Shown here: piece after piece, positions 3,001 through 6,000 of the stretch | Layout: the number at the start of each line of letters is the position of its first letter | How positions within the stretch are numbered: the stretch's first letter is position 1 | Assembly (NCBI GenBank): GCA_041910055.1 | Contig: JAYRRP010000003.1 | Span: 109,973-173,972, forward strand | DNA length: 64,000 nt | Direction of reading: 5' to 3' | From: Candidatus Saccharimonadales bacterium | GTDB taxonomy: Bacteria; Patescibacteriota; Saccharimonadia; Saccharimonadales; JAYRRP01 | Position numbers: made by a program

Positions 3001-6000
3001 ATGATCGAAATGAGCCACCGTAAGCTTTAAACCAGGCCGGCTTTGGAGCGAATGCAACAGTGCCATCGAGTCTACTCCACCCGACACTGCCACCACATAC
3101 CTTCCTGGCGCAACTGCAATGTCCATCTTATAATTCTAACAGTATGCGTAAGCTATATTTCGTCCGGCATGGCCAGAGCACATTAAATGTCCAAGGAGTA
3201 TTCTCAGGACACTCCGATCCACCACTCACACCGCTCGGACGTACACAAGCGAAGAAAGCCGGACAAAAGGCCACCGACCTGCATATAGATCTTATCGTCA
3301 GCTCACCTCTTTCTCGTGCTTTAACTACGGCGCAAATTATTGCTGCCGAAATTGATTACTCTCCAGATAAAATCTTTATAGAAAAGAATTTGATGGAGAG
3401 AAATTTTGGACAACTCGAAAACCAACCATATCAACCCCCGACGCAAATTGTCCACACCGATTACGGTGCAGAAGGTGATAACTTACTCATCCAACGTGCA
3501 GAACTTGTGTATGAATGGCTACAAAACCAATCAGCCGATACTATTCTTGTGGTTGGCCATGGTGGCATTGGTAGGGCGCTTCGCCACGTCGTTGATCCAA
3601 AAGCAGATTTTTACCAGCCGCTTGCAAACGCTGACATTGTTCGATGGCTCTAAATAATATATCTTCATTATTTTGACAAATTAGTGTAAAACATTAAGTA
3701 ATGAGTGAACCGTTTCCGTCTGACTATATAATGGAAGAATTAGCTTGCCCTAGTGAATCCCCGGATATCACATTCACGAAGCAAGTAGCCAGTTATGTAG
3801 TAGGGATGCACGAAGAACTTCCACAAATAAATTCCGCTACCGAAGCTAGACTTGCCCAAAACGCACTTAGACTAATCACATCCGACCCCAACAATATCCA
3901 TGACCAAAGGGGAGTATCGAGAATCGAGAAAAACGAAACCATGAAAACCCGTTTCAAGGAAGTGAATGAAAATATCACCAATGTTGGTAGTCCAGGTTAT
4001 AGAAGACTCAAGTATGACCTAACCAAGCATCGTACTAGCACGCAACCATTAGACGAATCCTGGAAAGACTCTGCTGCCTGTAAAGGGATGGACGTAGAGA
4101 TCTTCTATGATTCCGACAACACAGAGAGTATAGAAGCAGCACTAAAGGCATGCAAAGCTTGCGAGGTACGTGCGGAGTGTCGCGAGTATGCAAAAAAAGC
4201 AAATATAGAATGGGGTATTTGGGCCGAGAATTTAAAGGTACCTGATGGAAAGATACCAAAAATCTTTATTAGCATTAAAGAAAAACTTGAAAAAGACCAA
4301 GAGTAAACCTTAAACCCTAGGCTCCTGAATCAAACGCCAGTAATAATACAAATAAATAGGACTTTCATTTTGCGGCTACCACACTAACCTCAATCGTTGC
4401 ACCAAGTGGCAAAGCTGCTACACATACCGCTTCACGAACTGGAAATGGCTTATTGAAGTAAACAGGGTAAACTTCATTAAGCTCTAGCATTTGTGTCATA
4501 TTGGTAACGTAGATAACAACCTTAACAATATCGTCCAAAGTTGCGTCAGCAGCTTTGAGAATTGCAGAAATGTTCTGTATGATTTGCTCTAGCTTCTCTT
4601 TTACAGAGCCTTCAACAAGTGAGCCGTCTGGCTTGTTATGTATCTGTCCTGACACATAAACAGTGCCGTTACTGATAATTGCTTGGGAGAGAAATGGTGC
4701 GTCTGGCGCATTAGGTGTGGCAGCTTGCTGTTTCATAGCTATATCATAACAAAAGAGTTGTTCTGTTATGCGAAAGGATTCGCAGAACAGGAGAGGAAGA
4801 AACATGCAGAACCAACCTAAAAACGCGCCACTTGATTGCGCGTTTTTATAGGTTGGTAGTAATGATTTCTGACGTGGTAGCAGCGGCAGGGATTGAACCT
4901 GCGACCTCGGGCTTATGAGTCCTGCTTTTGACGCTAGCACTACAGACTTCACTAAGGTGTACGAGCTAGCATTCATGCGTTTTCGGCAGCACTTGGTTGG
5001 TGCTGTTGCCGTCATTTGTAGCCGTCAAATTGTTTAATTATTTTTGACTAAAGTCAAATGGTAGCGGTGACTGGACTTGAACCAGTGACCCCGAGCTTAT
5101 GAATCTCGTGCTCTAACCAGCTGAGCTACACCGCCACGTCAGGCTAATATAGCACGATTCACCTCTGTTGGCTACTCTGAACTTATGCTATCTCAGTTCA
5201 CCAGTCACAGAATCAACTAGTACACCGTCCATATCAAAAATAGCACCCTCAATATTGCTCATAAAACTTTATGTTCCTTCAGTTGTTCTAGCACATTGTC
5301 ATAAGACACAAACAAAACAGGTACAAACCCAACATCATTTGCAGTGCTGAGACTTTTCTCGGCATCATCAATGAATACTAACTCGGATGGCTGCACAGCC
5401 AATGCTTCTGCGAAATGCTTGAAGGTATTTGGGCTTGGTTTCATCAGCTTAGTTTCTGCGGAGATATGAAACACATCAAAATGCTTATCTACTCCCAAAG
5501 CACGCATCTTTCTGCCATTATCAGCAGTGGTATTACTCAGTAATCCTGTTCTATAGCCTTTGCCCCTTAAGGTATCAACTAGAGTAAGCATACTTTGGTC
5601 CACAATTTGTAAATGCTTATCCGCTTCATCACTAAGTGCAACCACCGCTTCATATTTGTCTGGCTTTCCAAGCTTGTCCACGAATAGCTTCCAGAACTCG
5701 TGCCAATTATCAATTTCACCTGTGTTAATTTTATAGTTCATCCCAAAGTAGACATCTTTGTAAGTACTATCATCCACTTCCAAAATCTCACAGATTTGTT
5801 TCGTAAAATTAACACCCGTAGTGCCAACACCTCCAATTACACCACCGTAGTCAAAACCAATTGCTTTTATTTTAGCCATTAAGATGCTCCACTAAGCGTA
5901 AAGCCGTCACTCCTGCGAGTAGTTGGAAATCTCGTAAATGTTCAGGACCGCCCTTCCAAATTGGTGTAGCGGCGGAATTGAACCAAAATCCCGCCATCCA

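Follow-up and report, generated by a model that had tools for sequence, protein, structure and literature searches.

Within a 64-kb stretch of contig JAYRRP010000003.1 from a Candidatus (Ca.) Saccharimonadales bacterium, hereafter the window, positions 4923-18470 appear to form a Saccharibacteria (TM7) integrative element that splits the elongator tRNA-Met gene of its host and supplies a tRNA-Met copy of its own, the logic known from tRNA-dependent lysogeny. We place the probability of this reading at roughly 0.8. The case for a split and substituted gene combines a short attachment core, the lack of a rebuilt tRNA, a conspecific empty site, the Met-elongator type of both genes, and conservation and covariation across nine related elements.

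The host gene lies in two pieces on the minus strand. The displaced 3' half, from the anticodon loop to the CCA end, occupies 4875-4925 at the left junction (attL), and the 5' half, from G1 to the anticodon loop, occupies 18460-18499 at the right junction (attR); joined in silico, the two give a valid tRNA-Met. Each junction holds the same 12-bp exact common core, GCTTATGAGTCC, which covers the anticodon loop and part of its stem (4911-4922 at attL; 18459-18470 at attR). The ends of the element are exact and enclose 13,548 bp. Two empty-site Logan contigs (L268 and L270) were reached via the sequence cluster of the window TilS protein (grouping at 90% identity), and in both of them the flanking genes are adjacent with an intact tRNA-Met between them. 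The intact gene of L268 (8176-8252) is identical to the joined halves of the window, and without the element the window aligns with L268 over 5,452 bp, in one block that has no gaps and is 99.78% identical. The element is polymorphic among conspecific strains. Flanks of such similarity, together with a clean empty site, indicate that it has moved recently and precisely.

Neither junction rebuilds a tRNA: ARAGORN returns nothing at attL or attR of the window. Where relatives carry a working 3' half, the attR side of the window element has a decayed pseudo-3'-half of 37 nt (18423-18459, minus strand), located opposite the last int codons. It begins CGGTAG, has no T-arm and is mismatched to the host anticodon stem; 17 of 45 nt on this side of attR match the true 3' half. 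An island in the sense of Islander (PMC4383910) restores the tRNA that it enters, and the attR chimera found here is no tRNA. Only 12 bp are shared and attP offers only a decayed 3' half; integration therefore rebuilds no tRNA. The remnants at attR, whose length is exactly right (37 nt), look like decay stages of a classical attP that once rebuilt its target. At the attR of a separate locus (L191, 11149-11185), the acceptor strand is still intact (CGCCGCTACC) and the T-arm is gone.

Several observations on assembly and gene calling concern this same site. A mechanically called open reading frame (ORF) of 216 aa with an L-PSP/RidA domain (4365-5015, minus strand) is over-extended across the tRNA 3' half into the element; the corresponding gene in the empty-site strain has 146 aa. 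Four further conspecific Logan contigs (L269, L271, L272 and L274) break no more than about 200 bp from the ridA-like gene, at or near the tRNA-Met site, and L001, an element-carrying contig, ends at the integrase. Assembly breaks near the tRNA-Met site suggest mixed occupied and empty populations in those samples.

Three tRNA genes were found by ARAGORN in the window and checked with the Rfam tRNA model (gathering score 29), and the anticodon is CAT in every one. The element-borne gene, a predicted elongator tRNA-Met(CAU) at 5059-5135 on the minus strand, is 77 nt long with CCA encoded and scores 65.1 bits (E = 7e-12); the other two score 61.4 bits (31680-31754) and 66.7 bits (34919-34994). 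The initial annotation had described an intact 77-nt tRNA with its own promoter, 137 bp inside the left core. The gene and its placement just inside the left junction stand, and the distance from the left core to the tRNA's 3' end measures 136 bp. A consensus scan locates the promoter-like site, TAGCCA-17 nt-(TGc)TATATT, at 5146-5174 (minus strand), ending 10 nt upstream of the tRNA. All nine elements keep the motif TAGCCA-N17-TGnTATATT upstream of their tRNA, with single-base variants in the first hexamer. From this conserved promoter the element tRNA is probably expressed, and it would then be charged by methionyl-tRNA synthetase. The split host gene and the element tRNA are each 77 nt long and share an identical 9-nt D-loop, G1-U72 and an A31/G39 apposition, and they differ at position 29:41, which is A-T in the element copy and G-C in the split gene. 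Each of these likenesses, and the differing pair, had been noted in the initial annotation and is present in the sequence.

The isotype of these genes was assigned with published sequence discriminators (Silva et al. 2006, PMC1635315). In that scheme, Met and fMet genes usually have C3-G70, and G3 or A3 with C70 or T70 points to Ile(CAT); C4-G69 and C5-G68 are each frequent in Ile(CAT), and A11-T24 with G12-C23 marks fMet (PMC1635315). C3-G70 is present in the element tRNA and the split gene alike, and position 11 of the element tRNA is a pyrimidine, not A (D-stem GCTC). By these discriminators both are elongator tRNA-Met genes, which agrees with the earlier claim that the element copy is a paralogue of the split gene and not an Ile2 species. 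The remaining CAU roles in the window are also filled. The gene at 31680-31754 (minus strand) is of initiator type, with a C1xU72 mismatch, A11-T24 and G12-C23, and the gene at 34919-34994 (plus strand) is of tRNA-Ile2(CAU) type, with G3-C70, C5-G68, an 8-nt D-loop and 84% identity to E. coli ileX-type genes. The lysidine synthetase TilS, which depends on a tRNA-Ile2(CAU), is encoded at 2212-3126 (minus strand; 304 aa; TIGR02432, 171 bits against a cut-off of 93.6). The proposed assignment of the three CAU species thus proves right, with all of these genes where they had been placed. BLAST isotyping against E. coli was tried and set aside in favour of the discriminators, since the best matches, annotated tRNA-Ile (81%), arise through the shared T-arm only and do not discriminate.

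Some details of these neighbouring genes deserve mention. The TilS match is limited to the N-terminal PP-loop/TilS_N domain, which suggests a short type that would lack the C-terminal tRNA acceptor-stem-binding domain. In the initiator tRNA at 31680-31754, U29-A41 replaces the usual G-C atop the three anticodon-stem G-C pairs, and its 1:72 position is C1xU72, compared with the usual C1xA72 in Ca. Saccharimonas aalborgensis.

The window and the S. aalborgensis locus each contain exactly one initiator, one Ile2 and one element Met gene, and 46 tRNAs are reported for a complete Saccharibacteria genome (PMC6031116). We infer that the host lacks another intact elongator tRNA-Met gene, and that viable integration thus depends on the element copy.

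The arrangement is not confined to the window. Integrase homologues of equal length and 57-65% identity occur in S. aalborgensis, Ca. Microsaccharimonas and Saccharibacteria metagenome-assembled genomes, and family loci were drawn from genomes, metagenomes and exact look-ups. Nine elements were compared: the window element, L007/L190 (complete S. aalborgensis, CP005957.1), L010, L028, L029, L032, L188, L189 and L262. Their order is the same throughout, namely host 3' half, core, 129-139 bp, a complete tRNA-Met, a variable body, an excisionase gene, int, core and host 5' half, with the element tRNA-Met on the same strand as the split tRNA. The comparison of related elements called for in the initial annotation therefore places a tRNA beside the left junction in nine of the nine elements whose left end was visible. 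No family locus has a visible left end without a tRNA; in the remaining loci of the group the left end lies beyond the fetched DNA. Elements range from 4.5 to 13.5 kb, that of S. aalborgensis being 4.5 kb, and exact common cores range from 11 to 24 bp (12 bp in the window). When the elements are excised in silico, a valid tRNA-Met results in 8/8 of those whose two ends are complete; none of the 18 att junctions of the nine elements holds a tRNA that ARAGORN recognises.

Conservation of the element tRNA can be set beside divergence of its surroundings. Integrases among the elements are 62-84% identical, those of L010 and L188 having 84% and 64% identity to that of the window, and the bodies vary; that of L010 encodes radical SAM, OTCase, ATP-grasp and DnaG-like zinc-ribbon proteins. 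The window, L010 and L188 nonetheless carry an identical element tRNA in hosts whose tRNA-Met acceptor stems differ (GGCAGCG, GGCAGGG and GGCGGGG), and L029 and L032 likewise share one element tRNA in different hosts. Identical tRNAs in hosts with differing tRNA-Met genes bear out the view that the tRNA is the element's own. When 13 distinct element and host tRNA sequences were aligned, 260 of 260 cloverleaf cells held standard pairs, as compared with 86.2% in shuffles; ten of 20 pairs had changed on both sides, and slid controls paired at 32-48%. Judged from this alignment, the element tRNA is under purifying selection on structure. G1-U72 and A31/G39 are invariant across element tRNAs and host genes alike. 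In IMG/VR, an integrase profile search returned only relatives of 30% identity or less, and 16 loci (L012-L027) came from a scan for the tRNA pattern.

Relatives that rebuild their target provide an internal control. Sister elements at tRNA-Arg(UCU), with 57-60% integrase identity, have an int that abuts and overlaps an intact tRNA. No tRNA gene is present in the ~10 kb upstream of int in the tRNA-Arg(UCU) relatives L033-L035, L194, L199, L203 and L215. The displaced 3' half lies 9.7-10.5 kb upstream of int in L033, L035 and L194 and 8.0 kb upstream in L034. Exact cores are 45 bp in L035 and 49 bp in L034; in the other two they are 19 and 21 bp, and 38 and 32 of 45 flanking nt still match. L209, a relative at tRNA-Met, abuts an intact tRNA, and many of the actinobacterial relatives checked adjoin an intact tRNA-Ile, -Ala or -Arg or lie near a tmRNA gene. 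One integrase family therefore exists in two states, one with a long core, a rebuilt tRNA and no tRNA gene, the other with a short core, a dead target and a cognate tRNA gene. That relatives which rebuild the target tRNA do so without such a gene speaks for the substitution proposed in the initial annotation.

This pattern has a precedent. tRNA-dependent lysogeny was named and shown genetically in actinobacteriophages (Guerrero-Bustamante and Hatfull, mBio 2024, PMC10865867), with cases in Fionnbharth/K4, cluster L, Cain/K6, Gaia/X and Gordonia CQ2 and DL. These phages share 8-17 bp with an attB in tRNA-Lys-TTT, tRNA-Ile2-CAT or tRNA-Leu-CAA, rebuild no tRNA and encode the cognate tRNA with its own promoter; when the phage tRNA is deleted the plaques are clear, and attP-int plasmids yield no integrants unless the tRNA is added (PMC10865867). 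Relatives with 33-52 bp cores rebuild the tRNA and have no tRNA gene (PMC10865867, Table 2). A single tRNA-Lys-TTT gene in M. smegmatis was argued for in the same work, and a wider occurrence was suggested, citing Lj965. Integration-proficient plasmids obey the same rule (PMC10865867), and the mechanism therefore needs no phage. In a tblastn search of the window integrase against 50,697 phage records, the best matches were mycobacteriophage integrases, among them those of Fionnbharth, Malthus, Wintermute and Boilgate (~30% identity across 88% of the query; E ~1e-35).

The window element resembles the actinobacteriophage system in its tyrosine integrase, its attB in a tRNA gene, its short core, its cognate tRNA with a promoter (predicted here), and its long-core relatives that rebuild the tRNA and lack a tRNA gene. 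It differs in having a Saccharibacterium host, of the Candidate Phyla Radiation (CPR, Patescibacteria), and an elongator tRNA-Met target. Carriers here are 4.5-13.5 kb with a terminase pair at most, whereas theirs are complete phages. The tRNA abuts attP here, whereas in Fionnbharth the tRNA overlaps gene 37 and int follows several genes later as gene 45. The int ORF here also reads through attP, and our system is known from sequence where theirs is known from genetics. The Lactobacillus johnsonii prophage Lj965, an earlier untested case in the account given in PMC10865867, is according to that account a Firmicutes prophage, unlike the Saccharibacteria element. Classical tRNA-targeting islands (Islander, PMC4383910), including the tRNA-Arg(UCU) sisters, which belong to the same integrase family at the identities given above, likewise have an anticodon-loop crossover, an int ending inside the tRNA and a displaced 3' half at the far end. 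Unlike the window element, with its 12-bp core, decayed remnant and whole tRNA gene, they have a working 3' half in attP (as the cores of L034 and L035 show). Our literature searches returned no description of a disrupt-and-substitute arrangement in Saccharibacteria or other CPR bacteria, in agreement with the initial annotation, which had known of none for this kind of organism; the principle itself was published in 2024 for actinobacteriophages. Nor did these searches return a tRNA inventory for S. aalborgensis. The novelty lies in the phylum of the host, the isotype of the target, carriers that are small and probably not phages, and the tight linkage of tRNA and attP, the principle being already known.

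In the mechanism that we propose, the tyrosine integrase crossed a short core in attP with the elongator tRNA-Met gene of the host, at its anticodon loop. With 12 bp shared and a decayed 3'-half remnant on the attP side, two dead halves result and nothing is rebuilt. In the circular form the element tRNA gene would lie immediately beyond the P' arm of attP. In the integrated state it points the same way as the displaced host 3' half and lies 136 bp upstream of it, and it would supply elongator Met function for as long as the element remains integrated. Precise excision would restore the host tRNA-Met gene. With a whole gene of its own, the element would probably be spared having to match the acceptor-stem strand in every host's 5' half. 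These stems vary between hosts at positions 4-6, even where the element tRNAs are identical. In a chimeric tRNA the 3' strand comes from the element and has to pair with a 5' strand from the host, a plausible reason for carrying the gene entire.

Phage tRNAs are often explained as accessory (PMC10865867), and the element tRNA could by analogy be unrelated to the disruption, serving as a translation boost or against an anticodon nuclease in a host that keeps a second elongator tRNA-Met. We consider this unlikely. In nine of nine elements the isotype of the element tRNA matches that of the split gene, the element tRNA is always fixed to attP, the target-rebuilding relatives have no tRNA gene in the fetched sequence upstream of int, the complete Saccharibacteria genome has 46 reported tRNAs (PMC6031116), and the window and the S. 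aalborgensis locus have one gene for each CAU role. Still less probable is an inert remnant, in which the tRNA would be a captured host gene drifting neutrally and the split would be tolerated since empty-site cells dominate. Terminase genes without recognisable capsid or tail genes, and the presence of both empty and occupied sites in public assemblies, would suit such a remnant, but every element-carrying cell needs an elongator tRNA-Met, the cloverleaf has stayed perfect through compensatory changes while integrases have diverged to 62-84% identity, the promoter is conserved, and the flanks agree at 99.78% with a clean empty site. It is highly implausible that the element tRNA and the split gene are instead tRNA-Ile2(CAU) genes or a second initiator. 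The best E. coli BLAST matches and the targeting of tRNA-Ile2-CAT by the phages OneUp and Mollymur (PMC10865867) favour Ile2, but the T-arm accounts for the E. coli match, the published rule (PMC1635315) excludes Ile(CAT) by C3-G70 and fMet by the lack of A11-T24/G12-C23, and the Ile2 role is already filled by the separate G3-C70 gene with its ileX-type likeness.

A split in the anticodon loop of an ultra-small epibiont brings Nanoarchaeum to mind, and the host tRNA might still work, either by joining of its halves in trans as in that organism or as a functional chimera at the right junction. Split tRNA genes in Nanoarchaeum were reportedly described by Randau et al. in 2005. Against both variants, none of the attL and attR sites of the nine elements yields a tRNA in ARAGORN; the pseudo-3'-half lacks a T-arm and leaves the anticodon stem mismatched; and complementarity between the flanks (-15.1 kcal/mol) is no better than that of shuffles (-12.8 +/- 2.7 kcal/mol). 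The archaeal splicing endonuclease is not known from bacteria. We accord a working host tRNA next to no credence.

Several points do weigh against an element that splits the host tRNA-Met and supplies its own. The isotype call comes from published sequence discriminators and elimination, not from a covariance or TFAM classifier. The CAU counts cover the window and the S. aalborgensis locus, and a second elongator tRNA-Met elsewhere in the genome is possible. G1-U72 and the A31/G39 apposition are unusual, though invariant in the host genes too. Finally, the element tRNAs of L028 (1560-1636), L029 (3711-3787) and L032 (4004-4080) carry the same GGACTCATAAGCC core as attB and are themselves potential recombination targets, on which the simple model is silent. 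Each of these three integrated elements has three direct core copies, and recombination between the element tRNA and attR, or entry of a second element into the element tRNA, is possible in them. Protection of the element tRNA against the element's integrase through the A29-U41 change was considered and rejected, as the element tRNAs of these three carry the attB core GGACTCATAAGCC.

The integrase gene itself is shaped by the attachment site. The window tyrosine integrase, 406 aa when integrated (17260-18480, plus strand), has Pfam Phage_integrase and SAM_3 (SAM-like) domains, and the R/K/H/R/H/Y-region columns are all present in alignment. An HTH_17 excisionase-like gene (17070-17273, plus strand) overlaps its start. 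The int ORF passes through the core, and its stop lies in the D-arm of the host tRNA 5' half. Among 26 aligned integrase homologues the consensus C-terminus is RLMSPxL, the translation of the anticodon-loop core, running on into the tRNA 5' half. On the other side of the core, a predicted frame of 41 codons and a stop (4912-5037, plus strand; LMSPAFDASTTDFTKVYELAFMRFRQHLVGAVAVICSRQIV*) would extend int across attP in the circle, with its stop 21 nt short of the element tRNA. The frame is open and its peptide conserved in eight of the nine elements (the window, L007, L010, L028, L029, L032, L188 and L262), other frames contain stops, and it is recognisable in the tRNA-Arg relatives L194 and L035. 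The predicted C-termini would therefore differ, with 441 aa in the circle versus 406 aa when integrated and a tail of ~40 aa exchanged. A search for the long circular form with a 65-aa C-terminal query gave no candidate, a weak negative as the search needs shared exact 5-mers. Longer integrase homologues (418-458 aa) were considered as circular forms and rejected, being read-through into tRNA-Arg. An ATG within the core, the complement of the anticodon CAT, could start a 40-aa ORF at attL, and the gene caller called one in L010.

The same coding sequence probably contains integrase-binding sites. Two GCCGTCA repeats at 5008-5031 (plus strand), which include TTGTAGCCGTCAAATT at 5016-5031, are putative arm-type sites of the P' arm, and two more at 18365-18384 (plus strand), inside int and within TTGTAGCCGTCAAATTAAGCCGTCAA (18360-18385), are putative sites of the P arm. 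Four of the seven plus-strand GCCGTCA copies in the window flank the two cores at a distance of ~90-110 bp, and the 16-bp TTGTAGCCGTCAAATT is identical on both sides. The repeats are likely arm-type sites, and conservation of the tail peptide (IAV…SRQ) may in part be conservation of the DNA site.

A core inside an ORF, with a protein changed by integration, is also found in SSV1-type integrases (PMC8371274) and in mycobacteriophage integration-dependent immunity (PMC10865867). In the SSV1 type, int is split into inactive parts, whereas the window int keeps its SAM-like and catalytic domains and only the ~40-aa tail differs; in integration-dependent immunity the affected gene is the repressor, and here it is the int tail. 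Beyond Saccharibacteria, the integrase is closest to actinobacterial homologues (36-48% identity), and a WhiB-domain protein, of a family typical of Actinobacteria, is encoded at 3701-4306 (plus strand), ~600 bp from attB. This neighbour and the actinobacterial integrase relatives fit gene flow between Saccharibacteria and their actinobacterial hosts. A broader proposal, which we offer tentatively and regard as rather doubtful, is that three features together go beyond the known scheme: an attP-crossing int frame that senses the integration state, a whole tRNA fixed to the P' arm, and exchange of modules between Actinobacteria and their Saccharibacteria epibionts. As a conjecture, such a sensor could bias integration against excision, and a whole tRNA gene would let one element move among Saccharibacteria with differing tRNA-Met genes.

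The findings would extend the disrupt-and-substitute strategy from actinobacteriophages to the CPR and from phages to small integrative elements, as a strategy conserved across an element family and not a single case. In genomes of ~1 Mb with ~46 tRNAs, an integrated element would hold an essential translation component, and its loss other than by precise excision should be lethal, in the manner of addiction. The int-attP-tRNA cassette, at under 2 kb, offers a ready basis for vectors that integrate as a single copy in Saccharibacteria, for which few genetic tools exist; as with the mycobacterial plasmids, a cassette without the tRNA would be expected to fail. For annotation, such genomes may have their sole elongator tRNA-Met on a mobile element, at a place where assemblies tend to break.

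The remaining genes of the element give some indication of its nature. Cargo at 5259-11927 comprises a HAD hydrolase, an APH-like protein, an LD-carboxypeptidase, an AAA_33 kinase, an ABC-F ribosomal-protection-like ATPase and an ABC exporter. The ABC-F gene (8359-9834, minus strand) matches the NCBIfam 'ribosomal protection-like ABC-F family protein' at 424 bits against a cut-off of 380, and adjoins the MsbA-like ABC exporter gene at 10113-11927; it is possible antibiotic-resistance cargo on a Saccharibacteria mobile element. The large and small terminase subunits are encoded at 11955-13589 and 13534-13956 (both minus strand), and no capsid, portal, tail or lysis genes were recognised in the window element; a phage satellite, an island and a remnant are all possible identities for it. 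Four genes of conserved order at 14016-16799 (plus strand; 246 aa, DUF5659 of 78 aa, 440 aa and 123 aa) have weak family matches only and possibly serve replication or regulation. Elsewhere in the window, a cobalamin riboswitch match is present at 58660-58819 (minus strand), with 34.5 bits against the Rfam gathering score of 31.5.

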